DNA from: an uncultured bacterium | Lineage (GTDB): Bacteria; Omnitrophota; Omnitrophia; Omnitrophales; Abzuiibacteriaceae | Reading direction: 5' to 3' | Assembly: GCA_964387845.1 (NCBI GenBank) | Contig: CAYLXA010000002.1 | Span: 32,001-96,000 of the forward strand | DNA length: 64,000 nt | Shown: in pieces, positions 6,469 through 60,852 of the stretch | How the letters are laid out: every line of letters begins with the position of its first letter | Position numbering within the stretch: the first letter of the stretch is position 1 | The notes under the pieces: model-generated | Database searches by the model: none | Seen by the model: only the letters and a program-made list of their open reading frames with translations | What the model was told of the DNA's origin: nothing | Position numbers and translations under genes: made by a program

Positions 6469-6469
6469 C

Positions 6470-8238: not shown

Positions 8239-8243
8239 ACGAT

Positions 8244-10978: not shown

Positions 10979-11002
10979 TGAGATAGTTAACGAGTGGCTT
11001 GT

Positions 11003-11968
11003 ATGAAAAAAATTTTAATCTGCGGCGGAACTGGTTTTATCGGCAGGAATTTGGTTGAGTATTTTGTCAAAAAACCAGATTTTGAAGTTTACGCAACTTG
11101 TTACAAGCGTCGTTCTCCCTTAATTCCAAAGGCTAAATTTAAGCGTATTGATTTAACAAATGTTGTGCAAGTTCAAGAAATTGTGAAGGGGATGGATGTT
11201 GTGGTTCAAGCCGCTGCCACAACCTCCGGCGTAAAGGATACGATTGAGGCGCCTTATGTGCACGTTACAGATAACGCCGTAATGAACTCCTTGATTTTTC
11301 GAGCGTGTTTCGAGCAAAAGGTGAAACACGTGATCTTTTTAAGCTGTACCGTGATGTATCCGAATCAGGAGGCGCCAGTTTCGGAAGAAGATATGAATTA
11401 TCAAATTACGGATAATTATTTTGGTGTCGGTTGGACAAAAGTTTACCTCGAGAAAATGAGCCAATTTTATTCGCGAATCGGAAGTGCTAAATATACCGCG
11501 ATTCGGCATTCCAATATTTACGGCCCTTATGATAAGTATGATCTTGAAAAATCACACGTTTTTGGCGCAACGGTTGCGAAAGTTGAAACTGCCAAGGACG
11601 GCAAAGTTGTGGTCTGGGGCACGGGCGCCCAAGAGCGCGATCTTTTATATGTGGATGACCTGTCCCGGTTTATTGATTTGGCAATTGAAAAGCAAACTGA
11701 AAAGTTTGAGCTGGTTAATGTTGGTTACGGAAAAAGCATTTCAATTGCTAATCTGGTCCAGTTGATTATTGACCGCTCCAAAAAGAATTTAAAGATTGAG
11801 TATGATCATTTAAAGCCTTCGGTTAACTTCAAGTTGGTTCTGAATATCGACCGCGCAAAGCGCATTTTTGGCTGGGAGCCGCAGGTGCCGCTTGAAGAAG
11901 GAATTGAAAGGAGTCTTGCGTGGTATCGAAAACATATTCAACCAATGTCTGCCGAAAAGATTAAATGA
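11003..11968 (+). CDS. NAD-dependent epimerase/reductase (second Fcl-like SDR)
   Basis: ICGGTGFIGRNL motif. An LSCTVMYP segment lies where Fcl has SSCIYP. The alternative start is 10994. Confidence 0.7.
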   Translation: MKKILICGGTGFIGRNLVEYFVKKPDFEVYATCYKRRSPLIPKAKFKRIDLTNVVQVQEIVKGMDVVVQAAATTSGVKDTIEAPYVHVTDNAVMNSLIFRACFEQKVKHVIFLSCTVMYPNQEAPVSEEDMNYQITDNYFGVGWTKVYLEKMSQFYSRIGSAKYTAIRHSNIYGPYDKYDLEKSHVFGATVAKVETAKDGKVVVWGTGAQERDLLYVDDLSRFIDLAIEKQTEKFELVNVGYGKSISIANLVQLIIDRSKKNLKIEYDHLKPSVNFKLVLNIDRAKRIFGWEPQVPLEEGIERSLAWYRKHIQPMSAEKIK

Positions 11969-14019
11969 AAAGCAAATTAATTTGCGCTGCCGTATTAGTG
12001 GCGCTGATTGTGATTTCATTTTACACCTACCGCTCCGGTGTCATTTCCGTGCCTCGCTCCGATCACTATGGGTTTATGGCGGAGAGGGAATACGCAGTTT
12101 CGGATACCGAGTTTTTGTTGAAGCAGTTGGTCTATAACCGGACCCGCGTCATCGCAAAGGGTGATTCTTTTTTGTTCAGGCCCGGAATGACCGGCACGCT
12201 CGCGCTTTTGGATATTTTTTTTCGGCATAATTTGTATGCGCTTGGCGCTTTCAGTATCCTCGCGCATGCTTTGACGGCTTTTTCATTGTTCTTATTGCTG
12301 AGTTTGTTTTTAAGGCGCTCTTTTGCGTTTATCCTATCCGTTGTATTTGCCACGCATCTGGCAGGTTTTGAAATGGTTTTTTGGCGCCATATCAGTCCTT
12401 ACATGTTTTGCCTGGTTTTTGTAGGATTGGCATTGTACGCGCTTGGCCGCTGGCTTCAGCCGCCCGAAAATCGAAATTGGCTTTTATTATTTTCATTCTG
12501 CCTTTTTTTATCTTCACTATTTCACGAAGTTGTTTTGCCGGCGATGGTTATCTTCTGTCTTTTATTTTTAGTTCTGCATTTTCAAAATCAATCAACGAAT
12601 CCATCTTATTTTAAATCATTGTCAATCGCGTGCCTGGTCCCGCTGGCTGCTAATTTGCTGCTCAACGTCGCTGGCCGGATCGCTTTTAGCAGCCAGGCCA
12701 ACCTGTTATTGAGTGATGCGGCGCAACCGGCAAGCGTTGCTTACGCCTCAAAATTTTTAAGCCACGCGGTTTACGTCGGGGGCCTGATTATCACTGCCTT
12801 TTTGGCGCCGAGCATCATTCGTTTCTCATTTATTAATTTGGATTTTCGGGCGGAGTGGGACTTTCTCAAAATTCCAGCGCCTGTTTTTTACACCGCCGGT
12901 TTTATTTTTCTTACATTGATCGCAGGGGCGTTAATTTATCTATATATTTTCAGAAAAAAGCTCGGTCAGCGACAGCTTTTTCCGATTTTTGCATTCGCGG
13001 GAATATTTTTGATTGTCACTTTTTTGGGACTAACGGTCGGGAGGGCCATTCCGCGCTCAATCGGTTATTTGAAAAACTCCACCTATTATTTCTATCTAAC
13101 CAATTACGCCCTTACAATCATCGTTGCTATGGGCTTGAGAAAAATCAGCAGCTTACCGTATAAAAATTTAAAAATCGGATTAGTGTTTTTCCTGCTCTGT
13201 GTTGCCGGTTATCAGATTAAAAGCGGTATTGCGGGAATCGAAAAGGCAATCAATGCTCGAGGTGATTACGATAAACAAATCGCTTCCAAAACACTCCGGG
13301 TTTGGTCAGAATTAAGCAAGCATCCGGAATATTGCTATGGTGGGACCGGGGCCGAAAGAGTTTCAAGCTTTGTGCCCAATGTTCTGCTGTACCGAAGGTC
13401 ATGCAATGCTTTCCCGGACAAAATCCCGCTCTATTTGCTCGAAAACGAAAAACGCGAACTTTGGTTTATGCAGTTGATTCCTGAGCAGATTGATCAGCAG
13501 GCCTATCGTTATGGGCAGATCAATAATGAGGGGCAAGCCGAGTTTTCCGCTCAATCAACCGATAACCAGCTCAGTTTTAGCGGTTTTTCTCTTAGCAATG
13601 CCGTCCATCATCCTATTTATTACGGCGCCCGGCTTCATGGGGGATTTGTCGGAGGTTTGGTATTTAACTATCACGACCCCGCCAATTTTTCAATCTTAGT
13701 GGCAAATGAACGTTACACTTATGTGCAATTTAACGAGAATGGAAACCCCTCGGAACCGTCGTATGTGGCGCAGCAGATTTTAGATCCGATCGCTTTTGAT
13801 TTGTCGATTCGGAGAATCGGCGGCAGGTATGTTGTATTCTATAACCGGACTTTGCTTGCAGTGATCAATGATGCTGTTTCCGAGGGACGAGTGGGGCTTT
13901 ATCGGAAGCCCCGTCATTCAGCAGGCGAGTATTTTACCGACGTGGTCTTGATTGATGCTTCAGAGGCCAAACAATCGCAGATGGGTGCTTTTGAACCTGT
14001 TTTTCAATTTCAATTTTAG
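11965..14019 (+). CDS. large polytopic membrane protein with a ~250-aa C-terminal soluble beta-rich domain (GT-C-like?)
   Basis: 684 aa. About 10 predicted TM segments in the first ~430 aa, then a hydrophilic C-terminal domain. 4-nt overlap with the upstream gene. Confidence 0.6.
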   Translation: MKSKLICAAVLVALIVISFYTYRSGVISVPRSDHYGFMAEREYAVSDTEFLLKQLVYNRTRVIAKGDSFLFRPGMTGTLALLDIFFRHNLYALGAFSILAHALTAFSLFLLLSLFLRRSFAFILSVVFATHLAGFEMVFWRHISPYMFCLVFVGLALYALGRWLQPPENRNWLLLFSFCLFLSSLFHEVVLPAMVIFCLLFLVLHFQNQSTNPSYFKSLSIACLVPLAANLLLNVAGRIAFSSQANLLLSDAAQPASVAYASKFLSHAVYVGGLIITAFLAPSIIRFSFINLDFRAEWDFLKIPAPVFYTAGFIFLTLIAGALIYLYIFRKKLGQRQLFPIFAFAGIFLIVTFLGLTVGRAIPRSIGYLKNSTYYFYLTNYALTIIVAMGLRKISSLPYKNLKIGLVFFLLCVAGYQIKSGIAGIEKAINARGDYDKQIASKTLRVWSELSKHPEYCYGGTGAERVSSFVPNVLLYRRSCNAFPDKIPLYLLENEKRELWFMQLIPEQIDQQAYRYGQINNEGQAEFSAQSTDNQLSFSGFSLSNAVHHPIYYGARLHGGFVGGLVFNYHDPANFSILVANERYTYVQFNENGNPSEPSYVAQQILDPIAFDLSIRRIGGRYVVFYNRTLLAVINDAVSEGRVGLYRKPRHSAGEYFTDVVLIDASEAKQSQMGAFEPVFQFQF

Positions 14020-17776: not shown

Positions 17777-20700
17777 ATGATTTCCGAAACTACTTCGCCT
17801 TTACCTAATATTAAAACATCGATGAGACCTCGCACGCTGAGCTTGCTCGTCCTATCATTTTTCTTTGTGTCCGGCGCCTGCGGCTTAATGTATCAAGTCG
17901 TGTGGCTTCGGGTGATGGGCCTCGTTTTTGGAAACACGACCTATGCCACCAGTGCGGTACTGTCGGGTTACATGGCGGGATTGGGGCTGGGAGCGCTGTG
18001 CTTCGGCAAGTGGATTGACAAGCCGTCAGCAGGAGATCCGGTTAAGCTTTATGGAATTATGGAGGGCGGAGTCGGAGCTTACGCGCTTTTGACGCCGTTT
18101 ATTTGGTATTTCATCGATTGGATCAACATCGTTTTTTACCGCGCCTTTAATCCCGAATTTCTTCAATTCAGTCTATTCAAATTTGCAGTGTCATTTGTGT
18201 TTTTGTTCATTCCGACATTTTTGATGGGCGGCACGCTGCCGGTGTTAAGCAAATTTTATATAGAGCATCGCGATCAGATTGCGCACAAGGTGGGGATTTT
18301 ATATGCGCTCAATACGGCAGGCGCCGTGCTAGGCGTGATTTTCAGCGGTTTTTTTTGTTTGTATTATTTTGGCGTATGGCAAACCACGGTTTTGACAGCC
18401 GTTCTTAACCTTTTGATTTTTGCCGCATGCTGGTTCTGGATTAAGGGGAATGCTGCGGGCGCTAGCGCTTTGCCGCCCGAAATCGCCGTTCAAGAACTGC
18501 CGGCTCCATCAAAATCGCAGCCAAATGCGTACTATACGACGCTGCTTGTTTTATTTGGGATTTCCGGCGGCGTTTCCATGATGTATGAAATCGGATGGAC
18601 GCGCATACTCGCCATTGTCGTCGGAAGCTCTATCTACGCATTTTCGGTAATGCTGTCGACGTTTCTATTGGGCATCGCCCTCGGCAGCTTTTTGTTCAGC
18701 TGGCTCTCCAAGCGGATCAAAATCGACCTATCCATTTTTGCCACCTTGCAAGCCGCCACTGCATTATTTGCTTTTTTGGGCATGAATCAATTTGAAGAAA
18801 TGCCATACCGCTTTTTAAAGCTCTATCACTGGTCTAAGCACACACCGTTTTTAATCGAGCTTGGAAGATTCGCGCTTTGTACAATCGTTATGCTGGGCCC
18901 GACCATTTGCATCGGCGCCATGTTTGCTTGCTTTATTCATTTGTATCATCAGCAAGAGCGTTTGGGGGGCGATATTGGCACGGCTTATTTTGCGAATACT
19001 GTGGGGACTATTTTTGGTTCGGCGCTGACCGGCTTTTTGATTATCCCAATCCTGGGAATTTACAAAACACTCATGGCCGCCGCCGGATTAAATGCCGCGA
19101 TCGGCGCGATTGCGTTTATGATGAGTTTGCCTAACCGGCAACTCAGGCGGACAATTGCTTTTTCCGTCGTGTTTGTTTTTACTTGGGTTGGTGCTAGCCT
19201 AGCGCGCCCGTGGAATAAATCAGTAATCACAAGCGGGGCGGTGGTTCGTCCGAACATGCATAACGCCAATTCGCAAGAAGAGTTTATCCGGTCTATGGAA
19301 AACCGGCTTAATCTGTTCTATAAGGAAGGGACGAGCGCAACGGTCAGCGTTAACCGAGTGCGCGATGTTATTTCACTCGCAGTGAATGGAAAAACAGATG
19401 CCTCTAACGGAACCGACGCGTTCAATCAATTTTTGCTTGGCCACTTGCCGATGCTGTTAAATCCGGATGCGCAAAAGGTACTTACCATCGGCCTGGGAAG
19501 CGGTTCGACGGTTGCCGCAGTCGCGTCTTACGCGGTCAAACAGATTGATTGCGTCGAACTGGAAGCTGCCGTGGTTGAGGGCGCCAGATTTTTTTCGGAA
19601 CTGAATCGAAATGTGCTAAACGACCCCAGGCTTCGCATGATTGTGAATGACGGCCGCAATTACTTAAAAATCAATCCTACGCTGTATGATGTCATCATTT
19701 CCGAACCTTCAAATCCATGGATGGCCGGTGTCGCTAATTTGTTTTCGCGCGAGCATTACGAAACAATGAAAGCGCGTCTCGCGCCGCAGGGGATCGTGTG
19801 CCAATGGCTTCACGCTTACAGCATGTCCGATCAGGATATGCGTATGATTATTCGAACATTCACGCTGGTATTTCCAAATACAAGTCTATGGACATCGAAT
19901 TATCCTGACCTGCTTCTGCTCGGGTCGAATGAACCGATTGAAATAGATTATCTCGAATTAAAAAAATCCTTTAACCGTCCGGAGGTTTTACAGGATTTTG
20001 AACCCTACGGAATTAAAACAGCGGATGGTTTTCTAGGCGCTTTTTGGCTGGATGACGAAGCGTTGCGTAGTTTTTCCGAAGGAGCCCGAATCAACAGCGA
20101 TAATTACCCCTACCTAGAATTTTCGGCACCGCGCCATTTGTATGACGATACGGTGAGCAGTAATTATCATTTAATCAACGCTTTTGCGTCGAAGCAGTAT
20201 CCAAAAATTAAAAACCTGAATCCTCCGATTGATCAAAATATTGAGTTTCATGTCAATATTGCCAGAAGCAACTTTTACCGGAAAATATACGGGAGGGTCC
20301 AAAGCGAACTTGACTTCATCAAAGAGCTGGATCCTAAAAACCCGGACTTGATCGAAATTTTGGGAATGGTTCAGTATGAGATGGGGAACTTTACAGACGC
20401 AGAGCGGCTGTTATCTGAATCTTTGATTCAAAATCCTGATTCACCCGAAACCCACTTCTACTTTGGATTGATCCAGCAAAGGAAGAAGCGCCACGAAAAT
20501 GCGATATTTTCTTTTGGTGAAGCGATACAGCTCGATTCGCGTGCCGCTAAGTATTACATAGCGCTGGGTGATTCATTGATGGAAATGAATGCGTTTGTCT
20601 CTGCGGTTGATGCTTTTGATCAGGCTTTGATTTATTCGCCTGCCAAGTTTGACTTATTGATTCGGAAGGCTTCCGCTCTCAGCCGTATTGTGCCGATCAA

Positions 20701-21001
20701 CGAGCAAATCAGATTTACGGAAGAGTTGCTTGAAATGTACCCGAAACATGTGGCGCTTTATGAAATGTTGGGAAATCTTTATCAAAATAACCATCAGCGC
20801 GATGACGCGGAAAAAATTTATTTAAGGATGATTCAAGAGTTTCCCCTGGAGCCCAACAGTTATTTGCAGCTCGGCATTTTATACGGCAAGACGGGCTCAA
20901 TGATGAAAGCAAAAGAGCAGCTCAAGAAGGCTGTACGCTATGATCCGGAACTGTTAAAAAACCCTGAAATTCAAAAAGTACTTCAGTATAAAGGTGCCTA
21001 A
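17777..21001 (+). CDS. fused polytopic membrane domain / spermidine-synthase-like aminopropyltransferase domain / C-terminal TPR repeats
   Basis: 1074 aa. About 12 TM helices (aa 1-480). The central segment VLTIGLGSGSTV…DVIISEPSNPW…GIVCQWL matches the SpeE fold motifs GGGDG…D(S/P)xDP. The last ~300 aa are TPR-like repeats. Confidence 0.7.
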   Translation: MISETTSPLPNIKTSMRPRTLSLLVLSFFFVSGACGLMYQVVWLRVMGLVFGNTTYATSAVLSGYMAGLGLGALCFGKWIDKPSAGDPVKLYGIMEGGVGAYALLTPFIWYFIDWINIVFYRAFNPEFLQFSLFKFAVSFVFLFIPTFLMGGTLPVLSKFYIEHRDQIAHKVGILYALNTAGAVLGVIFSGFFCLYYFGVWQTTVLTAVLNLLIFAACWFWIKGNAAGASALPPEIAVQELPAPSKSQPNAYYTTLLVLFGISGGVSMMYEIGWTRILAIVVGSSIYAFSVMLSTFLLGIALGSFLFSWLSKRIKIDLSIFATLQAATALFAFLGMNQFEEMPYRFLKLYHWSKHTPFLIELGRFALCTIVMLGPTICIGAMFACFIHLYHQQERLGGDIGTAYFANTVGTIFGSALTGFLIIPILGIYKTLMAAAGLNAAIGAIAFMMSLPNRQLRRTIAFSVVFVFTWVGASLARPWNKSVITSGAVVRPNMHNANSQEEFIRSMENRLNLFYKEGTSATVSVNRVRDVISLAVNGKTDASNGTDAFNQFLLGHLPMLLNPDAQKVLTIGLGSGSTVAAVASYAVKQIDCVELEAAVVEGARFFSELNRNVLNDPRLRMIVNDGRNYLKINPTLYDVIISEPSNPWMAGVANLFSREHYETMKARLAPQGIVCQWLHAYSMSDQDMRMIIRTFTLVFPNTSLWTSNYPDLLLLGSNEPIEIDYLELKKSFNRPEVLQDFEPYGIKTADGFLGAFWLDDEALRSFSEGARINSDNYPYLEFSAPRHLYDDTVSSNYHLINAFASKQYPKIKNLNPPIDQNIEFHVNIARSNFYRKIYGRVQSELDFIKELDPKNPDLIEILGMVQYEMGNFTDAERLLSESLIQNPDSPETHFYFGLIQQRKKRHENAIFSFGEAIQLDSRAAKYYIALGDSLMEMNAFVSAVDAFDQALIYSPAKFDLLIRKASALSRIVPINEQIRFTEELLEMYPKHVALYEMLGNLYQNNHQRDDAEKIYLRMIQEFPLEPNSYLQLGILYGKTGSMMKAKEQLKKAVRYDPELLKNPEIQKVLQYKGA

Positions 21002-21973: not shown

Positions 21974-23875
21974 GTGTGCGGAATCTACGGTTTTATCCAC
22001 CTGTCACAAAATTCCAAAATAGACGCAGGAATCTTAAATCAAATGAGCGGCTCGCTCAGGCATCGCGGGCCAGACGGGGAAGGCGCCTGGGTTGATGGTG
22101 CTGTCGCGTTTGGTCACCGGCGTCTGAAAATCATCGATTTAAGCGATAATGCCCGTCAGCCCATGTCTAACCGGGACGGCAGTATATGGATAACGTTTAA
22201 CGGAGAGATTTATAATTATCAAGATCATATTTCAGCGTTAAAGCAGAAGGGGTATCAATTTAAATCTACCTCAGACACTGAGATTATTTTGCACCTCTAC
22301 GAAGAGCATGGAATTGATTGCTTGAAGCACCTAAACGGGATGTTTGCGTTCGCGATTTGGGACAAGCGCAAAAACGAAGGGTATTTGGTCCGGGACCGTT
22401 TGGGTATTAAACCCCTCCATTATATCGAAGTGAACCGTAAGCTCATTTTTGCATCCGAAATCAAAGCAATTCTGAAGCATCCGGATGTAAGCCGTGAAGT
22501 TGATTTTCAATCGCTCGGTCAATATCTCAGTTTTGACTATGTTCCCGCGCCGAATACGATTTTGAGAAACGTTAAAAAGTTGGAGCCGGGACACTGCCTT
22601 AAGATCAAGCAAGGTTCCGTAGAGAGCATTCAATATTGGTCAGTTTCATATTCCGATCCAATAGAAAAAAAATCCGCAGCTGAATACGCGGAAGCCTTGC
22701 TGGATGTATTAAAAAGATCGGTGCGCCGTCATTTGATCTCCGATGTGCCGCTGGGGGCTTTTTTGAGCGGCGGAATTGACTCAAGTTCAATTTGTGTGCT
22801 GATGCGCGAACTTGGTGTTTCGAAAATCAAAACTTTTCATATCGGATTTGAAGAAGAATCCTTTGACGAAACGAAGTATGCGCGGCAAGTAGCGGCATAC
22901 CTGGGCACGGAGCATCATTCTGAAATTTTATCGGTCACAAAAGCGCGGGATTTGATTCCCGATATGATGGACTTTTTGGATGAGCCTTTTGGGGACGCTT
23001 CGTTTCTTCCAACCCTGCTACTATCCCAATTTACAAAAAAGCATGTGACAGTTTCGCTTAGCGGTGATGGTGGCGATGAAATTTTTGCCGGGTACCCAAC
23101 TTACCAAGCGCATTCGGTTGCTCGTAGTCTTGGCTGGATCCCGAAGTCCGTCTGGCAGCTGATGCGCGGCCTGACATCGCAGCTGCCTGTTTCAGACGAG
23201 AATTTAAGCACCGATTATAAGCTAAAAAAGTTTATCGATGGGATGGAGGAAGAGAATATGATTGCACGGCATTATCGGTGGTTGGGATCTTTTGATCCGA
23301 AAAGCCAGGCCGACTTGCTGTCAGCAGATGTTTGCGCTGCTTTGGGCGCTTTTGATCCGTATCAAATTGCAAAGGAATACGGTAGTGTAACTCGTCCGGA
23401 AGATTGGCTGGGCCGCCTTTTACATTGTGATCAAAGGTTTTATTTACAGGACAATATGCTGGTCAAGATTGACCGCGCAACGATGGCTGCGTCTCTGGAG
23501 GGAAGGGTCCCGTTTTTGGATCATGAAGTGGTTGAATTTGCAACCAAACTGCCGTCAAATTTGAAGTTGAACGGCCTGATAACCAAATACATTCTGAAGA
23601 AAACCATGAAACATCATCTTCCGGATGCCATCATCAACCGGAAGAAAAAGGGTTTTGGAATTCCTGTCGCCAAGTGGTTCAAAGCCGAGTTGAAGCCATT
23701 TTTGAAAGCAATATTTGAGCCGGCCAAAATTAAGCGTGAGGGATTCTTAAATCCGGCAGCCGTATCAAAATTATTAAGCGAGCATTTTGAAGGGAAGTTC
23801 GATCATAGAAAACAAATCTATACACTGCTTAATTTTGAACTTTGGCTTGAGCGGTATATTAGAAAATCGGACTAA
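21974..23875 (+). CDS. asparagine synthase (glutamine-hydrolysing), AsnB-family amidotransferase
   Basis: GTG start directly before Cys (MCGIYG). Ntn glutamine amidotransferase domain plus SGGIDSS PP-loop. 633 aa. Confidence 0.85.
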   Translation: MCGIYGFIHLSQNSKIDAGILNQMSGSLRHRGPDGEGAWVDGAVAFGHRRLKIIDLSDNARQPMSNRDGSIWITFNGEIYNYQDHISALKQKGYQFKSTSDTEIILHLYEEHGIDCLKHLNGMFAFAIWDKRKNEGYLVRDRLGIKPLHYIEVNRKLIFASEIKAILKHPDVSREVDFQSLGQYLSFDYVPAPNTILRNVKKLEPGHCLKIKQGSVESIQYWSVSYSDPIEKKSAAEYAEALLDVLKRSVRRHLISDVPLGAFLSGGIDSSSICVLMRELGVSKIKTFHIGFEEESFDETKYARQVAAYLGTEHHSEILSVTKARDLIPDMMDFLDEPFGDASFLPTLLLSQFTKKHVTVSLSGDGGDEIFAGYPTYQAHSVARSLGWIPKSVWQLMRGLTSQLPVSDENLSTDYKLKKFIDGMEEENMIARHYRWLGSFDPKSQADLLSADVCAALGAFDPYQIAKEYGSVTRPEDWLGRLLHCDQRFYLQDNMLVKIDRATMAASLEGRVPFLDHEVVEFATKLPSNLKLNGLITKYILKKTMKHHLPDAIINRKKKGFGIPVAKWFKAELKPFLKAIFEPAKIKREGFLNPAAVSKLLSEHFEGKFDHRKQIYTLLNFELWLERYIRKSD

Positions 23876-25812
23876 GTTTTCCGAAACGAAGCTGTTGTAA
23901 CGGAATCGTAAAACACCATCAAGATCTCATCAATCGGGATATCGGCCGTCAACTTAGGGTTCAAAATTTCAAATCGACCGTCCGTAACATTAACGAAACC
24001 AAAAGGCGCGATTTCACGGCTTGGCGCGGCAACCTGAACATAAACTTCGTAAATTCCGTCCGGAAATCCATCCCCTTGAATCAAATACCCCTCCTGCGTT
24101 AAACCGCTTTTTGCCGCTGCCTTTGGAAGCGATTCAGAGAAAAATTCATAACCAGTTTCATCTGCTATTCGGGGTTTTGCTGATAGCCGATAGGTATTAA
24201 CCTGCTCAATCAAAAGAGGTGCCTGTGTTTTGGGAATAGATTCCGTGATATAGAGCGTCGGATCACGATTAATAATAATCACATCGCCTTTTTTAATGAA
24301 TTGGTAAGAGCCGGGCCCTAAAACCAGTGGCTCGCTGGGGTTGTTGGCACGTTGCGGTAAATACGTCGTGATGGGCAGGTGATAGACTGGTTTTCCGGTA
24401 TAAAATTCGATCGCGTTACCGTAGAAGTGGTAGATGTATGTGACTTTATCGTTGATGTCAAAAACATAATCTTTGGGATGAATGGTATAGTAAGGCCCGA
24501 CCCAAAAAATACTAGAATTTTGAGACAAGCTTTTTGCGGCCTTGCTGATCTTGCCTGAAAAATCGTTCGAATAAACGGGATCGGCGAATTTTATGCACTC
24601 TGAAAATCCTTTCTGAAGAGGCGAGAAGGCAAACACAAAGCACAGCATGCCCGCAAAAGCATTCTTGATTTGATCCGATTTGATTCTGAGAGCTATAAAT
24701 TGAATAATTGCCAATGCGCCTTTCAGCGTGAAATAAAACACGGGCGGAAAGAGCGGAAACAAATAACGAGCTTCTCTGACGGCAATTACATAAGTTTGAA
24801 ATAGAAAAAAGGCAAAAAACCAAATGATGAAAAATAGTGACAATGGCCGCCTGTCCTTCGCTGACAGAAAAATCCCACCAACAAAAAGGAGATGGAGCGG
24901 AAAAGGAATCGATTTTAATAAAAATACATAGTTCCAGTTCGGGTTTTCCCAGCCTGTATTTTTTTGATACTGCGCAATCAGGTCTTGGACGAATTTCAGA
25001 ATTGACGAGTGCCATGGTGCTAAATCCAAAAGCGTATAGAGCAGGCCGGCCAGTAAGAAATAAACCGTAACCGGCACGATGAATAAAGCGATTAATTTCA
25101 CAAGCAAACCTACTTGTCGAGGCTTGCCCGTGCTCTTGATTTGAAAAACACGGTTAATGATTTCGTAGATAAGAAAAACGCCGAATAGAAACGGAATTAA
25201 GTTGTAGCGGATCCCGATTGCAAACATAGTCAAAATTCCAGCACTCCACAAAAAACCGGCATTTCCGGAGTTTTGACTCTTCCAATATAAATAAAATGCA
25301 GCCGAAGTGAATAAGGTGGCCGCAATGTCTTCTTTGGCAAACGGAGCATAGTGAATTAAGAGCGTATTGCCGGCCAGAAATAGAGTTCCGAGCAGCGCTT
25401 CGGTTTTACCAAATTCAAACCGCAAGAACTTGAAAAACACGAAAAGCAAAAGCAAGAACAAAGCAACGCAGGTCAGATGGACGGTTATCAGCGAGAAGTC
25501 GGGGCTTTGTGCCCATTGCTCTAAAATAAAGATCGGAGAAAGAAGGATCGGAAAAATAAAAGGTCTTTTCCAATAATAAGTCAGCGATTCATCCAATGTC
25601 GCAATTTTTCGGGCGTTGACCAGGGTTTCATAGGCGTCAAAAAAGTCAATTCTAAGGTGAAGCGCAACCCAAAATAGGTATAAGCCGAGAGCGACCAATA
25701 AGGAAACGATAATGAAGTTGATTTTGCTTCGAATGCGGTCTGTAAACGGGAGTGTTGCTTCAGGCAAGTTCAATCGGTGTACCTTTGCTGTTTTCGAAGC
25801 GCTAATCGACAA
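23872..25812 (-). CDS. polytopic GT-C-type membrane glycosyltransferase (ArnT/PMT-like)
   Basis: 646 aa, highly hydrophobic. Early loop DFFDAYETLVNARKIATLDESLTYYWKRPF is GT-C-like. Convergent with asnB, with stop codons overlapping. Confidence 0.6.
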   Translation of the reverse strand: MSISASKTAKVHRLNLPEATLPFTDRIRSKINFIIVSLLVALGLYLFWVALHLRIDFFDAYETLVNARKIATLDESLTYYWKRPFIFPILLSPIFILEQWAQSPDFSLITVHLTCVALFLLLLFVFFKFLRFEFGKTEALLGTLFLAGNTLLIHYAPFAKEDIAATLFTSAAFYLYWKSQNSGNAGFLWSAGILTMFAIGIRYNLIPFLFGVFLIYEIINRVFQIKSTGKPRQVGLLVKLIALFIVPVTVYFLLAGLLYTLLDLAPWHSSILKFVQDLIAQYQKNTGWENPNWNYVFLLKSIPFPLHLLFVGGIFLSAKDRRPLSLFFIIWFFAFFLFQTYVIAVREARYLFPLFPPVFYFTLKGALAIIQFIALRIKSDQIKNAFAGMLCFVFAFSPLQKGFSECIKFADPVYSNDFSGKISKAAKSLSQNSSIFWVGPYYTIHPKDYVFDINDKVTYIYHFYGNAIEFYTGKPVYHLPITTYLPQRANNPSEPLVLGPGSYQFIKKGDVIIINRDPTLYITESIPKTQAPLLIEQVNTYRLSAKPRIADETGYEFFSESLPKAAAKSGLTQEGYLIQGDGFPDGIYEVYVQVAAPSREIAPFGFVNVTDGRFEILNPKLTADIPIDEILMVFYDSVTTASFRKT

Positions 25813-26956
25813 CGACGACTTTTGCCGGAGGGAACCCGTTAAATGCGGCTACGGCACTGGCAGCCGAATAAGCTCCGATATTCTTGACGTAAATCACATT
25901 ACCGACGTCAAGCTCCGGAAGTTCCTCGCTGGCTGAAATCGTATCAAATGAATCGCAAGTCGGGCCGGCAAGCGTGCTTAAAAACCTTTGACCGCGGCGG
26001 AGAGTTTTGAATTCGTACTTGCAGTGATCAAAAACAATGCCCGAGAAATCCTGATAAATCCCATCATTCAAATAATAGTAATTTTTGTTATTCCGGAATG
26101 TGCGCCCCACGACTTCAGTCACTAAAATTCCTGCGGGGCCCACCAAAAAACGGCCCGGCTCAGCCATGAATTTCACGTCTTTATCAAACAAACGCTTCAT
26201 TTCGGTTTTGATGGCGCGCGCCATATTTTCGAATGTTGCGTGCTGGTCGTTGTCAAAGTGGCGGATCGGAAAACCGCCGCCGATATCAACCGTATTAAGA
26301 TAGATTCCTTCACGTTTTAATTCCTTGAAAATCGCCGACGTGACTTCGAGGGCTTGGACGTAGTTGCCGGTATTGGTGCACTGAGAGCCGACGTGAAAAC
26401 AGATGCCGGCTGGTGTTAAGCCGAGCTGTTTCGCTTTTTTCAGCAGGAAAGTGGCCTGATCGGGATCGGCGCCGAATTTGAGCGATAATTCGACTATGCT
26501 GCCCAAATTCGCGACCTTGATTCTTAGTAATACTTTGGCTCGCGGGCAATATTTGGCAATTTTGTATAGCTCGGGCTCATTGTCGAAAACGGTAAATTTT
26601 ACGCGGCAGGCACGCGCAAGCTTTAAATCCTCGGCAGATTTAATCGGATTGGCGAAGATGACTTGATCGGGCGAAGCGCCGAGGTCAATCACAGTCTTCA
26701 TTTCGGCTGCGCTCGCAACGTCAAATTTGGTGTTCAGCCGCAAAAATGTTTTGATGATTTCGGGGTTTGGATTGGCTTTGATCGCGTAATAAATCTGGAC
26801 CTGCGGCAGGTGTTTCTTGAAAAGCTGGTATTGCCTAATCAAAATACTGCGCTTGATCAGCATAAAAGGTGTCGAATGCTTCTTCAGAGATTTTCGGATC
26901 AGCGTTTCGACACCGTTCCCGGAAATTTGAGCTGTCTTGGTTAGGGTAGCGGGCAT
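25802..26956 (-). CDS. PLP-dependent fold-III decarboxylase, eukaryotic-type ornithine (or lysine/ornithine) decarboxylase-like
   Basis: Motifs YYAIKANPNP, FDVAS, VIFANPIK, KFGA, FHVGSQC and VDIGGGFP align with ODC family signatures. 384 aa. Confidence 0.7.
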   Translation of the reverse strand: MPATLTKTAQISGNGVETLIRKSLKKHSTPFMLIKRSILIRQYQLFKKHLPQVQIYYAIKANPNPEIIKTFLRLNTKFDVASAAEMKTVIDLGASPDQVIFANPIKSAEDLKLARACRVKFTVFDNEPELYKIAKYCPRAKVLLRIKVANLGSIVELSLKFGADPDQATFLLKKAKQLGLTPAGICFHVGSQCTNTGNYVQALEVTSAIFKELKREGIYLNTVDIGGGFPIRHFDNDQHATFENMARAIKTEMKRLFDKDVKFMAEPGRFLVGPAGILVTEVVGRTFRNNKNYYYLNDGIYQDFSGIVFDHCKYEFKTLRRGQRFLSTLAGPTCDSFDTISASEELPELDVGNVIYVKNIGAYSAASAVAAFNGFPPAKVVVVD

Positions 26957-26963
26957 CTAGGGA

Positions 26964-28415
26964 TCAACGGACCAAAAAGGTGTTGAACTGCCATGTCTCA
27001 TGCTCGGTCGGAATGTGGCCGTTTGTGTTTCGGAAAAGGCGAAATAAATTTTTCACAGGTGTCCAATCAACCGGCTGAGAAATAAAAGGCCCCAAGTAAG
27101 GCCTTGCGACTTTCATGATTTCATCATGGGGCAGGTCATCCGGAACGCAAACGCCTTCAGACGGATTCGCCATCATCCACATCACCGCCGCAAGCACCGA
27201 GCAAGCGACTTGAAGGGTGGTTGCATTTTGATGGGGTGCCAAGCGGCGAGCCTCTTCGATATCCAGCAAGCTTCCGGTCCACCAGGATTTGAAATCATGG
27301 CCCATGAGCAATACACCGAGTTCGTCGCGCCCGCTCACGATGTCGTCATTCAGGATGCGCTGCTTGCTTTGCAGGTCGAACTGGCGCATTTCAAGCTCAA
27401 TCAATGAATTCATCGCTGCATCGCAAGGACAGTAGGCATAGTGGACGGTAGGGCGGTAAACCGGCTTATCATCCTCCCAAACGGTTAAATAATCGGAAAT
27501 GGTGAATGCTTCACCGTGACGCACAACCATTCCCACAATCTCACCGCTCGGAACCCAGGAGCGAACCCACGTTTTAATACCGGGGCGGGCAAGGCAAATT
27601 TGATTACCGGGGCCTGATAAATGATAGTGCGCATCGGGCGGGAGGTTCATTTCGTGGGTTCCCCAGCCCATTTCGGCGGGTGCAATACCTTCTTCGCGAA
27701 AGCCTTCGACGCTCCAGGTGTTTACAAATTCATTCACTTCTTTTGGTTTGCGCGTAATCTGCGAATCGCGTTCACTGATATGAATGGTTTTCACGCCGCA
27801 AAGCTGCGCTAGCTTGGCGTATTGTTTATGGCGAAGGGCTTTTTGAATGTCCTTCAGCCGTGTTCGGGATTCCTTGGCTTTTGTTTTAAGGATTTTTTCA
27901 GCAATATCCTGAAGCGCTATTTTCGTGAAATGGGAAACGAGTCCGGGATTGGCGCCGTGATCCACAACCGCGCTCGGGCCCTTGTTGTTTTCCCAGCTAT
28001 TGATCAGCTTTCGGATCGCCATTTGGCGGACATAAAGGGTAAGCTCGGTCGGGTGCTGTTCTGTGCCTCCAAAATAAGGGTCCCAAAGCTCAACGGAAGT
28101 GTTGATGTAATTGACGCCGTTTTGATGGCACCAATTGAGAATTTCGACCGTGTCGATGTTGTAGGCCAAATCAACGATCATATCGCCCTGGCCGACAAAT
28201 TGTTTCAGGATCTTGGCGTAATTATCTTTTGTAATTTCTTTTTGTGTGTACTTAACGCCTTTGGCGAGAACGTCTTTTACGTGGCGCCGATTGTCGATCA
28301 TGTCCATGATCGTGATTTTTTCGGTCGGCATTTCGATGTGTTTCAAAAACAAAGGCAGTGTGCATTGCGAAACAGAGCCGCAGCCAATCACTAATAATTT
28401 TCCGTTAAATTTCAT
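26964..28415 (-). CDS. hss: homospermidine synthase (saccharopine-dehydrogenase family)
   Basis: 483 aa. N-terminal LLVIGCGSVSQCTLPL NAD fold. Conserved HSS blocks VNTWSVEGF, AEMGWGTHE, VHYAYCPCD, DELGVLLMGH, APHQNATTLQVA and the WQF…LVR C-terminus match the bacterial HSS I recall. Confidence 0.75.
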   Translation of the reverse strand: MKFNGKLLVIGCGSVSQCTLPLFLKHIEMPTEKITIMDMIDNRRHVKDVLAKGVKYTQKEITKDNYAKILKQFVGQGDMIVDLAYNIDTVEILNWCHQNGVNYINTSVELWDPYFGGTEQHPTELTLYVRQMAIRKLINSWENNKGPSAVVDHGANPGLVSHFTKIALQDIAEKILKTKAKESRTRLKDIQKALRHKQYAKLAQLCGVKTIHISERDSQITRKPKEVNEFVNTWSVEGFREEGIAPAEMGWGTHEMNLPPDAHYHLSGPGNQICLARPGIKTWVRSWVPSGEIVGMVVRHGEAFTISDYLTVWEDDKPVYRPTVHYAYCPCDAAMNSLIELEMRQFDLQSKQRILNDDIVSGRDELGVLLMGHDFKSWWTGSLLDIEEARRLAPHQNATTLQVACSVLAAVMWMMANPSEGVCVPDDLPHDEIMKVARPYLGPFISQPVDWTPVKNLFRLFRNTNGHIPTEHETWQFNTFLVR

Positions 28416-28564
28416 TATGTTCTCCGGTTTTGCTTACAGAAATGTATTCTATACAAGTTGCTGTGCACTGCAAGAAAAAAATGAGGTTTTTACGCATATT
28501 TTGCTTTTTGGGAAATCTAGATGTTTGATTGAACAGGGAATCAAATTTTGATAAGATTTTGGTC

Positions 28565-35410: not shown

Positions 35411-36532
35411 ATGAGCGAACCTTTACAGCTTAAATTAAGCGACAAAGAATTAATTCAGAGAAAGGCCGAAGTATTGGCAAAGCCCATTGCTTCGATTGAT
35501 TTAGAGAAAATCACCAGCCTGTCGGACTTGGTCGATTCCTTCAAAAATACATCCATTCAAGCCCGGAATGTCGGAGCCTGTGCGGATATTTTTGGCCGGA
35601 TGCTGCAGGACTCAGAACGCCCGACGATTTTGCTCGGATTGGCGGGGCCTTTGATTGCGGCAGGCCTCCGCAAAGTGATCCGGGACATGATCGAATACAA
35701 CATGGTGGACGTGGTTGTTTCAACTGGTGCTATTTTGTATCAAGATTATTATCAGGCGCGCGGCGGCAGGCATTTCCGAGGAACGCCGGATGCGGACGAT
35801 TCGGAGCTTCGTGATCTTTACATCGACCGGATTTACGATACCTACGTAGATGAAGAAAAATTTTGGAGCTTTGACATTGAAATCGGCCGCTTCGCTGATC
35901 AGCTGCATCCGGGGGAATATTCCACGCGCGAATTTTTGCATTTGCTCGGAAGCACGATTACGGACAATGACTCCATTCTGGGAACGGCGAGCAAGCACGG
36001 TATTCCGGTGTTTTGCCCCGCGATCAATGATTCCAGTATCGGAATCGGACTAACCGAACATTATCACCGCGCAAAGAAACAAAATAAAAAGGGAATTACG
36101 ATCAGTTCAATCCGCGATAATTATGAGCTGACCCAAATTGTTGTTAATTCCAAACGCACCGCAGCTTTTTATGTGGCGGGCGGTGTTCCAAAAAATTACA
36201 TTAATGACTCGGTCGTGATGAGCTACATCTTCGGAAAAGATACGGGCGGCCACAAATACGCAATTCAACTCACGACCGATTCGCCGCACTGGGGCGGATT
36301 AAGCGGCAGTACGTTATCTGAGGCAAAATCGTGGGGCAAAGTGAACACCGAAGCCAACACCAGCATGGCGTTTGTGGAGCCATCGGTATCGCTTCCGCTG
36401 GTGGTGGGCTCAGCGCTCCATAAAAAGTTGTATCAAGGCCGCAAACGGCTCCAATTTCAATGGGATCATGACGAATTAACGCAAATCTCGTCGGAATTGA
36501 ATACTCAAAAGAAGGCGGCAGCACTCAAATGA
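35411..36532 (+). CDS. deoxyhypusine synthase-like protein (bacterial DHS-like homospermidine synthase family)
   Basis: 373 aa. Conserved DHS blocks LAGPLIAAGLR…MVDVVVSTGA and C-terminal GGLSGST…AKSWGK. Confidence 0.7.
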   Translation: MSEPLQLKLSDKELIQRKAEVLAKPIASIDLEKITSLSDLVDSFKNTSIQARNVGACADIFGRMLQDSERPTILLGLAGPLIAAGLRKVIRDMIEYNMVDVVVSTGAILYQDYYQARGGRHFRGTPDADDSELRDLYIDRIYDTYVDEEKFWSFDIEIGRFADQLHPGEYSTREFLHLLGSTITDNDSILGTASKHGIPVFCPAINDSSIGIGLTEHYHRAKKQNKKGITISSIRDNYELTQIVVNSKRTAAFYVAGGVPKNYINDSVVMSYIFGKDTGGHKYAIQLTTDSPHWGGLSGSTLSEAKSWGKVNTEANTSMAFVEPSVSLPLVVGSALHKKLYQGRKRLQFQWDHDELTQISSELNTQKKAAALK

Positions 36533-41207: not shown

Positions 41208-42665
41208 GTGGCGGAAAATATGCCAAGCATAGCGGCACGACTTGATCGGGTCGAATTGCGAATCCTGGCTTTTTTATCCGCACAACTCCTGCTTGCCTTC
41301 TGCATTTACCAATCGATCCTCAAGCTCCGGGAAGCCTACTACCGACTCCTTGCATTACATCACATTTCCTTTTATTGCTCTGTCGCGCTGATTGCAATTC
41401 TTTTGGGGTGGTTTGGGTTGAAAAAAATCGGTGCATTTATTACCGGAATGATTGCATCCTGCGCCGCCATTTTGTGCGCCATCGTAATGAGTGAAAGCTG
41501 GCTTATTATTTTTCCTCTCAGTTATTTGTTTCTCTTTTTATTAATCCAAATTGTTGAGAAACGGTATTCGGATGAGTGCGTGGTCCGCGAGGTTGAAATC
41601 GATAAATATTTGGCAGGAAAAAATGATCTAGAGCTTGCCTTCATTGAAAAAGGGCGGGGTATCAGCGTTTGCTTTGAAAAGTATTCAACTTACTATAACT
41701 TGCGCCGCTTGGCAGATGAATTTTCAACCACCTTCCAGCTTTCGGAGCTTGGAACAATCGTGGTGAATCGCACAATCGAATTTATTCAGCGCGGCAGTTC
41801 GTGCTTGTTATTTTTAGCGTCGCATGAGCACGATCAAATTTCTTTAATTGCATCAAAATACAGCACGCCGAACCAAAAGAGGCCGCTTCGAAAGCTGGGA
41901 GATATTCTAGATTTTTGGGTACTGCGCAACCGCCAGCATCTGCTCGTGAATGATTTACAAAATGATTTTCGTTTTGACCTTAGAAAAGCCACAGCGCTTG
42001 AAAATTTGGCGAGTGCTATTTTGGCGCCGATCACGCACGAGGGAAAGGTGGTGGGTACGCTGCGAATTAATTCAGAGAAGCCGGACTCATTCACAACCGA
42101 CCACTTGCGGCTTCTGGATGCGATCGCCACTCTGGCATCGTCGGCTTTGTCGAATGCGCTTTTGTATCAAAAAACAGAAGAGCTTGCAATTCGCGACTCA
42201 CTGACCGGCCTGTATGTGCACCGCTATTTTCTGGATCGCTTGAAGGATGAGCATCAACGAGCATTGTTAAATCATGAAAATTTGTCTCTTCTGATGTGCG
42301 ACTTGGATCATTTTAAAAATATCAATGACCACTACGGGCATGCGATCGGTGATTTGGCTTTGCAGCGCTTGGCGCGAGTGCTTCGAACGCACTGCGAGCA
42401 TGCGATTGTTGCCCGGTACGGCGGTGAGGAGTTTGCCGTTTTACTTCCGCAGATTACAAAAGTCGAAGCCAAAAAATTAGCCGAGAAGATTCGTCAGCAG
42501 GTAGAAACGGAACGCATTGAGATCAGGCGCGATGTTTTGCCGGTCACAGTATCAATCGGTGTTGCCAACATCCCCGACGATACGCTCGATTCGGAGGAGC
42601 TCATCCGGCTTGCCGATACGCGCCTTTATCAGGCCAAGCATGAAGGACGAAACCGCGTATGTTGA
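41208..42665 (+). CDS. membrane-anchored GAF-GGDEF diguanylate cyclase
   Basis: N-terminal TM helices, a GAF-like middle domain, RYGGEEF active site and RxxD I-site. Confidence 0.8.
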   Translation: MAENMPSIAARLDRVELRILAFLSAQLLLAFCIYQSILKLREAYYRLLALHHISFYCSVALIAILLGWFGLKKIGAFITGMIASCAAILCAIVMSESWLIIFPLSYLFLFLLIQIVEKRYSDECVVREVEIDKYLAGKNDLELAFIEKGRGISVCFEKYSTYYNLRRLADEFSTTFQLSELGTIVVNRTIEFIQRGSSCLLFLASHEHDQISLIASKYSTPNQKRPLRKLGDILDFWVLRNRQHLLVNDLQNDFRFDLRKATALENLASAILAPITHEGKVVGTLRINSEKPDSFTTDHLRLLDAIATLASSALSNALLYQKTEELAIRDSLTGLYVHRYFLDRLKDEHQRALLNHENLSLLMCDLDHFKNINDHYGHAIGDLALQRLARVLRTHCEHAIVARYGGEEFAVLLPQITKVEAKKLAEKIRQQVETERIEIRRDVLPVTVSIGVANIPDDTLDSEELIRLADTRLYQAKHEGRNRVC

Positions 42666-48495: not shown

Positions 48496-48515
48496 TTCGT
48501 GATGAGTTGTTATTT

Positions 48516-49496: not shown

Positions 49497-49497
49497 C

Positions 49498-50394: not shown

Positions 50395-50395
50395 G

Positions 50396-51727: not shown

Positions 51728-51743
51728 AAATTGGGGGAAGTGT

Positions 51744-56772: not shown

Positions 56773-56820
56773 AGCGCATTATAGCTGCCATGCCTTAAAG
56801 TGCAATTCATAAGGCGTTGA

Positions 56821-56848
56821 TTGACAATTTGAGGAATTGCTTTAAAAT
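56821..56848 (+). promoter_or_regulatory. sigma-70-like promoter TTGACA-N16-TAAAAT in a divergent GT4/GT4 spacer
   Basis: TTGACA at ~56821 and TAAAAT at ~56843, about 50 nt upstream of the GT4 start at 56898. Confidence 0.45.
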
Positions 56849-56897
56849 GGATGTTTCCAATTTGTAAATATCATAACCTATTGTAATACAATAACTT

Positions 56898-58028: not shown

Positions 58029-58031
58029 TCA

Positions 58032-60849: not shown

Positions 60850-60852
60850 TAT

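Follow-up and report, generated by a model that had tools for sequence, protein, structure and literature searches.

A Putative Homospermidine Synthase–Ornithine Decarboxylase Gene Pair Adjoining a Glycan-Modification Island in an Uncultivated Bacterium

Organization of the Locus

The window, that is, the whole 64-kb stretch of DNA analyzed here, carries on its minus strand two open reading frames arranged head to tail, hss (26964..28415; 483 aa) and odc (25802..26956; 384 aa), both starting with ATG and separated by a 7-nt spacer. The former would encode a bacterial, NAD-dependent homospermidine synthase (HSS) of the saccharopine dehydrogenase fold, and the latter a PLP-dependent ornithine decarboxylase (ODC) of the alanine racemase (AR) fold, possibly with activity on both lysine and ornithine. 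The sequence GGAGAA lies 5 nt upstream of the hss ATG. The 113 nt that separate hss from the divergent nadE gene (28416..28528) presumably hold the minus-strand promoter and ribosome-binding site of the hss transcript; a TTGCAG-16 nt-TAGAAT element can be recognized there by reading, with a score under the threshold of the promoter scan. Four relatives (L001, L003, L006, and L087) share this divergent nadE/hss junction, and hss–odc lies at the margin of a conserved block of housekeeping genes that includes nadE, rsfS, argS, miaA, hflX, and rpoN. On the opposite side, plus-strand glycan genes converge on the pair. A preliminary description had placed two open reading frames at 25802–28415, convergent on glycan-modification genes, and both the positions and the convergent orientation were confirmed.

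The same description proposed a two-gene operon. A third gene, for a glycosyltransferase of the GT-C fold (PMT_2/ArnT-like), follows on the minus strand at 23872..25812, directly after odc, a point that the description had missed. Its product has 633–646 aa depending on the start codon, the TTG at 25773 being the likely one; the public gene call corresponds to the 633-aa form, starting 28 nt past the odc stop. A consensus scan found no terminator-like site between odc and this gene. Because the GT-C gene lies on the same strand, at most 28 nt after odc, and no such site intervenes, the local transcript probably comprises the three genes hss–odc–GT-C. At the GT-C stop codon the scan returned a terminator-like hairpin followed by a T-run (23867..23884, minus strand), a candidate 3′ end for this transcript, which constitutes weak evidence since promoter and terminator sites in the region are no richer than in shuffled sequence.

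Identity of the Two Enzymes

The 483-aa protein contains the Pfam domains Sacchrp_dh_NADP (PF03435) and Sacchrp_dh_C (PF16653). In a sequence search of the PDB its matches at E<=0.001 were homospermidine synthases only, with an alignment spanning residues 3–483: those of Legionella (2ph5, 3e-102), Blastochloris viridis (4plp, 2e-99), and Pseudomonas aeruginosa (6y87, 1e-93). For the B. viridis enzyme, eight catalytically relevant residues have been listed, D94 among them (PMC8489232). When the correspondence was mapped by hand from the PDB-search alignment, seven of the eight were found to be kept: E117, N162, E210, W229, E237, H296, and E298 correspond to E109, N156, E215, W234, E242, H300, and E302 of the window protein, and these seven are invariant across 27 homologues. 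The exception is the “ionic slide” residue D94, replaced by Asn (N86) in the window and by Gly in the Legionella enzyme. Compared with the characterized bacterial enzymes (EC 2.5.1.44; B. viridis 4plp/4tvb, Legionella pneumophila 2ph5, and P. aeruginosa 6y87), the window protein is of equal length, aligns end to end with about 50% identity by eye, and shares the two Pfam domains, the residues of the inner, centre, and outer amino sites, and the Glu-His-Glu triad. It differs in the Asn at the entrance-tunnel position D94 and in its host, since the characterized enzymes come from proteobacteria whereas the window, to judge by named homologues, probably belongs to an uncultivated Omnitrophota-like lineage. 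Judged by its sequence, the 483-aa protein is a bacterial homospermidine synthase.

The 384-aa protein matches Orn_Arg_deC_N (PF02784, 1.5e-62) and Orn_DAP_Arg_deC (PF00278). Its best PDB matches are the lysine/ornithine decarboxylases (L/ODC) of Selenomonas ruminantium (5gjm, 2e-82) and Vibrio vulnificus (2plj, 1e-70), followed by human ODC (5e-61); LysA chains appear at 1e-34 or weaker and SpeA at 1e-4. LysA trails ODC and L/ODC by some 50 orders of magnitude. No NCBIfam LysA or arginine decarboxylase model reached its cut-off, the lysA model giving 192 bits against 298. The grouping of the protein with ODC rather than with LysA, ADC, or CANSDC rests on this E-value ranking and on the NCBIfam cut-offs. 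All of the catalytic and PLP residues of human ODC that were compared are kept (K69, D88, E94, R154, H197, S200, GGG235-237, E274, R277, D332, C360, D361, Y389, and F397). Their window equivalents include K60, G226-228, E266/R269, C334/D335, and Y363, which are conserved in 43–45 of 45 HSS-linked homologues. The position of D332 is Asp in the window and in 40 of the 45, the few exceptions being planctomycete-type loci in which odc precedes hss. The fold and the catalytic Lys, Cys, and Asp are common to the Selenomonas and Vibrio enzymes, to eukaryotic ODC (1d7k), and to the window protein, which also carries the GPTCD and FNGF motifs. The 384-aa protein is therefore assigned as a probable AR-fold (“human-type”) ornithine decarboxylase. 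These results, with scores well outside the range of chance, bear out the two identities given in the preliminary description, a bacterial HSS and a decarboxylase with eukaryotic-type ODC signatures; the groupings with LysA or with carboxy(nor)spermidine dehydrogenase (CANSDH) that it had named as evidence to the contrary were both negative in the PDB ranking, with lysA under its cut-off.

Conservation of the Gene Pair and Proposed Pathway

The adjacency of hss and AR-fold odc has been described in diverse bacteria by Li, Baniasadi, Liang, Phillips and Michael (J Biol Chem, 2026; PMC13625781). In a set of 80 species-representative loci for HSS, which span many phyla, an ODC homologue was found immediately downstream of HSS on the same strand in 44, immediately upstream in 5, and within 2 kb in 4, while the remaining 27 lacked a nearby ODC homologue (10 of these being truncated contigs); hss and odc are hence directly adjacent in 49 of the 80. 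The identity of HSS to the window protein correlates with that of the adjacent ODC (r=0.93). As in the cluster of Li et al., the window has hss directly beside a gene for a human-type ODC, without an intervening agmatinase, and a putrescine-dependent route; it differs in the GT-C gene appended downstream on the same strand. Since the pair is common and already described, that of the window represents a further case of a known arrangement.

In the proposed pathway, the PLP-dependent ODC would decarboxylate L-ornithine to putrescine. The NAD-dependent HSS would then oxidize one putrescine to 4-aminobutanal, condense it with a second putrescine, and reduce the resulting Schiff base to sym-homospermidine, following the mechanism of the B. 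viridis enzyme (PMC8489232). This route, from ornithine through putrescine to sym-homospermidine, had been anticipated in the preliminary description and is consistent with the full-length homology, the retained residues, and the conserved pairing. Homology, catalytic residues, and synteny statistics form its observed basis, and from them we infer the substrates, the product, and co-transcription. Homospermidine would most likely be the bulk triamine of the cell, with an ordinary housekeeping function, and the two genes are inherited and transferred as a unit. We put at about 85% the probability that hss–odc is the known putrescine-dependent homospermidine module and that the adjoining glycan island has no biochemical connection to it.

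The Downstream Glycosyltransferase Gene

The product of the third gene scores slightly over the cut-offs of the Pfam families PMT_2 and PMT. Its AF2 model (pLDDT 79.9, pTM 0.81) retrieved PglB, STT3, and ArnT with Foldseek at about 1e-8 to 1e-7, and ALG9/12, Emb, and Pmt4 more weakly, down to about 1e-4. A conserved HLRxDYFDxYE motif fits the acidic motif of the first external loop of GT-C enzymes. On its modeled structure, a multi-helix membrane domain with the GT-C fold, the protein is a member of the GT-C superfamily. Its family is rare: a search of 5.8 billion protein clusters yielded only seven homologues, and a scan of metagenome contigs with the protein added no contig beyond one already known.

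The order hss–odc–GT-C occurs in three closely related genomes only, in which HSS identity is 100%, 93%, and 77% while that of the GT-C protein drops to 54% and 40%; one of them (L087) has a second, tandem GT-C paralogue. In a distant relative (L094) the gene lies with GT2 and AsnB, their order rearranged, and without hss–odc, and further family members (L088, L089, and L095) also lack the pair. The company of GT2 and AsnB in that distant relative, without hss–odc, indicates that the GT-C gene belongs to the glycan module. The persistence of the three-gene order despite 40% GT-C identity is compatible with simple descent, and with a functional link as well. In the reading that we favor, a variable glycan-modification island would abut hss–odc in this lineage, and its GT-C gene would have ended up directly behind odc, where read-through from the hss promoter probably transcribes it, the two functions being biochemically unconnected.

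Alternative Interpretations

The alternative that survives best, while still being unlikely, is that the decarboxylase is a dual lysine/ornithine enzyme that also produces cadaverine; HSS might then yield aminobutylcadaverine in addition to homospermidine. Dual enzymes head the PDB ranking of the decarboxylase, which makes a certain output of cadaverine possible, and Pro, the bacterial residue, occupies the P54 position of the window protein in place of the eukaryotic Asp. P54, A44, and other Selenomonas residues are positions that we take to govern the preference for Lys or Orn; a list of them was reportedly drawn up by Takatsuka and coworkers in 2000. In comparison with the Selenomonas and Vibrio enzymes these presumed tuning residues are mixed, since elsewhere the window protein is ODC-like, with Val at the A44 position, GPTCD instead of GPSCD, and Asp at D332 where Selenomonas has Glu. 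Moreover, the conserved partner HSS needs putrescine (PMC13625781). A dual specificity would add to the main explanation, not supplant it.

It is less probable that, in a small clade, hss–odc has been drawn into a common transcript with a GT-C gene of a rare family, so that the expression of envelope-glycan modification is coupled to polyamine synthesis; we consider this very improbable. In its strongest form, putrescine or homospermidine would be attached to, or would neutralize, an acidic glycan of the GT2/AsnB/GT-C module.

Very little likelihood is left to the idea, raised in the preliminary description for homospermidine or a derivative, that putrescine or homospermidine made by the locus is a substrate for envelope glycan modification, carried out by the GT-C enzyme together with AsnB, GT2, and a SpeE-like fusion protein. 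It draws on the position of the GT-C gene after odc, on the same strand and with no terminator-like site between, and on the conserved order in three genomes while the GT-C protein diverges to 54% and 40%. In addition, polyamines are covalently attached to envelope polymers elsewhere, such as cadaverine on the peptidoglycan of Selenomonas. The neighbors, although not hss–odc itself, also resemble the ArnC/ArnT- or Gtr-type polyprenyl-phosphate-sugar systems: the GT2 protein fits the ArnC model best (206 bits, below the cut-off), and the GT-C protein has an ArnT/PglB-like fold. Against the idea, the linkage is confined to a narrow clade, being absent in the relatives with 72% and 70% HSS identity and in all 80 genome representatives, and the GT-C family occurs without hss–odc in the four genomes mentioned above. 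The GT-C fold is confirmed, and to our knowledge such enzymes act on sugars carried by polyprenyl-phosphate donors and do not transfer amines. AsnB keeps the Cys2 glutaminase nucleophile, which points to glutamine as the nitrogen donor. The SpeE-like domain lacks the canonical acidic residues of aminopropyltransferases, with GLGSGS and SEPSNP in place of what we take to be the canonical motifs, GGGDGG and DSSDP.

Comparative evidence gave this idea no support. Glycan genes are absent beside hss–odc in two relatives (L003 and L006). When 85 HSS loci were searched by tblastn, and downstream neighbors by phmmer, for GT-C, AsnB, GT2, and the SpeE-like fusion, none appeared beyond the 93% relative (L001/L002), which has glycan-gene matches near HSS, and one locus (L027) in which a SpeE-like fusion of 34% identity lies 6 kb away from hss. 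Nor did any third gene recur among the same-strand neighbors downstream of odc in ten hss–odc pairs from other phyla; these were a LeuA-like protein, YceI (2), polyphosphate kinase, a tautomerase, an amino-acid kinase, a sulfatase, a large glycoside-hydrolase/lectin-type protein, and two ORFs without a Pfam match. A search of the literature on homospermidine with Omnitrophota or LPS found nothing linking homospermidine to envelope glycans.

Another reading that we hold to be highly doubtful is that the ODC homologue has become an arginine decarboxylase, putrescine being formed, as happens in Rhodophila globiformis, through an agmatinase whose gene lies elsewhere. Specificity is not given by sequence alone, and such a switch has been demonstrated in HSS-encoding alphaproteobacteria: some HSS-linked AR-fold ODC homologues are arginine decarboxylases, the switch being signaled by an adjacent agmatinase, while an AR-fold ODC of Brucella, taken from a species that has HSS, acts specifically on ornithine (PMC13625781). 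No agmatinase lies beside odc, nor beside the homologous pairs at L001, L003, L005, and L087, and no member of the agmatinase or arginine decarboxylase families was detected among the ORFs of at least 150 aa, plus rsfS, in the window. The Asp at the D332 position also argues against the switch; in the chlorovirus arginine decarboxylase, which derives from ODC, this position is Glu. Finally, a misassignment of the pair, as CANSDH with NspC or LysA, can practically be dismissed: the rival enzymes do fall in the same Pfam superfamilies, but the HSS-specific W229, E237, H296, and E298 are present, and no CANSDH/CASDH or carboxynorspermidine decarboxylase chain occurs among the PDB matches of either protein at E<=0.001. 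LysA, CANSDH, and NspC were accordingly ruled out as identities by these matches and by the lysA score.

A Deoxyhypusine-Synthase-Like Gene in the Window

A deoxyhypusine-synthase-like (DHS/SpeY-like) gene lies at 35411–36532, 7 kb from hss–odc. Its product scores 333 bits against a cut-off of 500 with NF002699, and 335 against 434 with the DHS model NF002006. Neither the window nor the neighborhoods of its homologues in L091–L093 showed an arginine decarboxylase or agmatinase partner for this gene. The HSS and SpeY routes have been treated as mutually exclusive (PMC13625781), and the window genome differs from that scheme in carrying both HSS and a DHS/SpeY-like gene. An HSS and a DHS-family enzyme might be active side by side in the same cell, which would conflict with the proposed exclusivity.

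Implications

The frequency of direct adjacency, 49 of 80 loci, puts a figure on the tendency of hss and odc to move together as a module, which is useful for annotation although expected. The pair adds an uncultivated, probably Omnitrophota-like lineage to those bacteria for which homospermidine synthesis by the ornithine/putrescine-dependent HSS route is predicted. Two further features could, if true, matter beyond annotation: the lineage-specific joining of hss–odc into a transcript with a glycosyltransferase gene, and the co-occurrence of hss–odc with a DHS/SpeY-like gene.

The hss–odc Pair and Its Predicted Products

The hss reading frame (26964..28415, reverse strand, 483 aa) lies head to tail with odc (25802..26956, reverse strand, 384 aa), which follows on its 3′ side after a spacer of 7 nt; a ribosome-binding site, GGAGAA, stands 5 nt before the ATG of hss. 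With both frames in place and very strong family matches for both proteins, the pair recognized in the preliminary description is real.

The 483-aa protein comprises the domains Sacchrp_dh_NADP and Sacchrp_dh_C. In a sequence search against all PDB chains, only homospermidine synthases (HSS) were matched, covering residues 3-483: those of Legionella (2ph5, 3e-102), B. viridis (4plp/4tvb, 2e-99), and P. aeruginosa (6y87, 1e-93). Carboxy(nor)spermidine dehydrogenase, the alternative previously named for this protein, was absent from these matches. The catalytically relevant residues of the B. viridis enzyme are D94, E117, N162, E210, W229, E237, H296, and E298, and the variants N162D, E237Q, H296S, E298Q, E210A/Q/K, and W229A are inactive (PMC8489232). 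These positions were mapped by hand on the PDB-search alignment (offset +3, native numbering vs. the 6s65 chain). The window protein keeps E109, N156, E215, W234, E242, H300, and E302, all invariant across 27 homologues; the sole change among the catalytically relevant residues is that of the entrance-tunnel D94, which is N86 here and Gly in the Legionella enzyme. With seven of the eight listed residues kept and HSS as the only PDB matches, the assignment to bacterial HSS holds.

According to its domain match, the 384-aa protein is an alanine-racemase-fold (AR-fold), PLP-dependent decarboxylase. Its PDB ranking is headed by the lysine/ornithine decarboxylases of Selenomonas (2e-82) and Vibrio (1e-70), followed by eukaryotic ornithine decarboxylases (ODC; ~1e-61), a chlorovirus arginine decarboxylase (ADC; 3e-56), LysA (1e-34 or weaker), and SpeA (1e-4), and contains no match to carboxynorspermidine decarboxylase. 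With the NCBIfam lysA model it reaches 192 bits, below the cut-off of 298. Neither LysA nor NspC, the two alternatives considered earlier, is upheld by the ranking or the lysA score. All the catalytic residues of human ODC are present, namely K60, D298, and C334/D335 (human K69, D332, and C360/D361) together with D79, E85, R145, H188, S191, G226-228, E266, R269, Y363, and F372, and the label "eukaryotic-type ODC" is therefore apt. The preference among ornithine, lysine, and arginine cannot be read with confidence from the sequence.

Conservation of the Pair across Bacteria

A profile-guided scan with one genome per species provided 80 HSS loci, distributed among Omnitrophota, Margulisiibacteriota, Planctomycetota, Verrucomicrobiota, Elusimicrobia, Lentisphaerae, Gemmatimonadota, Chlorobi, Chloroflexi, Actinobacteria, and others. 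ODC homologues, searched by tblastn with the window proteins, are found immediately downstream of HSS on the same strand at 44 loci, immediately upstream at 5, and within 2 kb in another orientation at 4; the other 27 lack one, 10 of them being cut by a contig end. Across the 44 loci, HSS identity and adjacent-ODC identity, both to the window proteins, correlate with r = 0.93, as expected for two genes that are inherited and transferred together. Of the 45 HSS-linked ODC homologues (window protein counted), 43-45 retain the catalytic residues.

In diverse bacteria, hss adjoins an AR-fold ODC gene, HSS-dependent synthesis is universally putrescine-dependent, and some HSS-linked ODC homologues have turned into ADCs where an agmatinase gene lies alongside (Li et al., J Biol Chem 2026, PMC13625781). 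Agmatinase and ADC families are absent from the window ORFs scanned (all of ≥150 aa plus rsfS), and none adjoins the pair in close relatives. The pair is an ordinary module, already described in the literature, and the core reading proposed for it, a predicted homospermidine route, is right. In other lineages, a further same-strand gene can come after the pair, such as that for a GNAT acetyltransferase in L005 (9331-9759) or an ArgB-like amino-acid kinase in L057 (12680-13561), possible lineage-specific additions for polyamine acetylation or ornithine supply.

Genomic Surroundings and Transcription Unit

Upstream of hss lies the divergent nadE, and beyond it a conserved housekeeping block (ogt-like, rsfS, argS, miaA, hflX, NUDIX, a deoxyhypusine synthase (DHS)-like gene, an ADP-heptose epimerase gene, tRNA-Thr, and rpoN). 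Synteny on this side is kept in relatives with HSS 93, 72, and 70% identical. Directly downstream of odc, a same-strand gene, here called GT-C (23872-25812), encodes a membrane protein (633-646 aa); as listed it overlaps odc by 11 nt, while the public gene call starts at TTG 25773, 28 nt after the odc stop. A consensus scan, whose terminator-like sites are no commoner than in shuffled sequence, found none between odc and GT-C and one hairpin exactly at the GT-C stop (23884-23867). From this weak evidence we infer that the local transcript is probably hss–odc–GT-C rather than the two-gene operon of the preliminary description. The convergent AsnB gene and GT-C share 4 nt where their 3′ ends meet (23872-23875), which leaves no room for separate terminators except the hairpin at 23867-23884.

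The GT-C protein matches Pfam PMT_2 and PMT just over their cut-offs. In an AlphaFold2 model computed with the seven homologues of the family (mean pLDDT 79.9, pTM 0.81), the large N-terminal domain is entirely helical, which fits a multi-pass membrane domain, and the C-terminal domain is a beta-sandwich without a clear match. In Foldseek the model retrieves PglB, STT3, and ArnT (E ~1e-8 to 1e-7) and, more weakly, ALG9/12, Emb, and Pmt4 (down to ~1e-4); on this structural prediction, the third gene is a GT-C glycosyltransferase. Comprising seven clusters among 5.8 billion, the family is extremely rare, and it diverges fast, with 54% identity between genomes whose HSS are 93% identical.

Elsewhere in the window, an unusual sugar-nucleotide set (1420-11968, forward strand) combines epimerases/dehydratases, alpha and beta subunits of a TPP-dependent E1, a DegT aminotransferase, a GHMP kinase, a nucleotidyltransferase, a B12-binding radical SAM enzyme (HpnJ-like), and an L-2-hydroxyglutarate-oxidase-like flavoenzyme, which suggests a heavily modified or branched sugar. 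Two large forward-strand ORFs within glycan clusters (11965-14019, 684 aa; 60853-62499, 548 aa) match nothing in Pfam or NCBIfam. A tandem pair of GGDEF diguanylate cyclase genes (41208-44095, forward strand), of which the first also encodes a GAF domain, precedes a transaldolase gene, a gene for an LptD-N-like 779-aa protein (44775-47114), and a second polysaccharide cluster (47203-63626).

Is Homospermidine an Envelope Substrate?

The proximity of the pair to glycan genes had led to the proposal that homospermidine, or a derivative, is a substrate for envelope modification. The order hss–odc–GT-C is indeed kept in three genomes, those of the window, the 93% relative, and a 77% relative (L087), in which GT-C is 40% identical to that of the window and followed by a second tandem paralogue. 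In a planctomycete MAG (L027), hss–odc lies 6 kb from a SpeE-like fusion that is 34% identical to that of the window. In the 72 and 70% relatives, the GT-C position is taken by type IV pilus/T2SS genes or holds nothing similar; odc downstream neighbors are heterogeneous in other phyla; and neither GT-C (0 of 80) nor homologues of the AsnB and GT2 genes occur at the 80 representative HSS loci. In a distant relative (L094), a 35%-identical GT-C member stands divergent beside a GT2 and an AsnB, its partners in the window too, in a rearranged locus devoid of hss–odc, as are the loci of the members in L088, L089, and L095. Since this linkage outlasts rearrangement, it suggests that GT2, AsnB, and GT-C form the functional module. 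Descent within a single narrow clade, where a conserved housekeeping block meets a variable glycan island, accounts best for the adjacency of hss–odc and GT-C. In keeping with such a border, identity to the 93% relative drops from 93% for HSS and 88% for ODC to 68-70% for AsnB, GT2, and the SpeE-like fusion, and to 54% for GT-C.

The other hints of an envelope link, AsnB and the SpeE-like fusion, are weak. The AsnB homologue starts with (M)CGIYGF and so has Cys2, the glutaminase nucleophile of class II amidotransferases in general; the ammonia it delivers should therefore come from glutamine. The 1074-aa fusion (17777-21001, forward strand) joins an MFS-like membrane domain, a spermidine-synthase-like domain, and TPR repeats, and belongs to an uncharacterised NCBIfam subfamily, "fused MFS/spermidine synthase". 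Its SpeE-like domain reads GLGSGS and SEPSNP at the places where canonical aminopropyltransferases have GGGDGG and DSSDP, so that it may not bind decarboxylated SAM or polyamine and may not be an aminopropyltransferase. Among the papers searched, none connects homospermidine with LPS or glycans. Given the partnership of GT-C with GT2/AsnB away from hss–odc, the absence of GT-C, AsnB, and GT2 from the representative HSS loci, Cys2 of AsnB, and the deviant SpeE-like motifs, the envelope proposal is not supported and appears very improbable.

A DHS-Like Gene Near hss

The DHS-family gene of the housekeeping block (35411-36532, forward strand, 373 aa; PF01916 at 1e-87) lies 7 kb from hss. The protein keeps the SWGK lysine motif and reaches neither NCBIfam cut-off, scoring 335 bits for DHS (cut-off 434) and 333 for SpeY/G44G-synthase (cut-off 500). 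Homologues of 65-72% identity occur in many Omnitrophica and Margulisbacteria MAGs and in one Nitrospinae MAG. Close homologues with a name, both for HSS and for the DHS-like protein, belong to Candidatus Omnitrophota/Omnitrophica, Margulisiibacteriota, and Saganbacteria, so that the window is likely of Omnitrophota-like origin. At least one named MAG, Omnitrophica RIFCSPHIGHO2_02_FULL_46_11, holds HSS and the DHS-like protein together. No agmatinase or ADC gene was found near the DHS-like gene of the window or adjoining it in three contexts examined. The HSS and SpeY routes have been argued to be mutually exclusive, and SpeY and AR-fold ODC to co-occur only in Alphaproteobacteria and Coxiella (Li et al., 2026, PMC13625781). 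In the light of this argument the co-occurrence is noteworthy: a DHS-like gene, HSS, and an AR-fold ODC in one genome would run against the picture of mutually exclusive HSS and SpeY routes.
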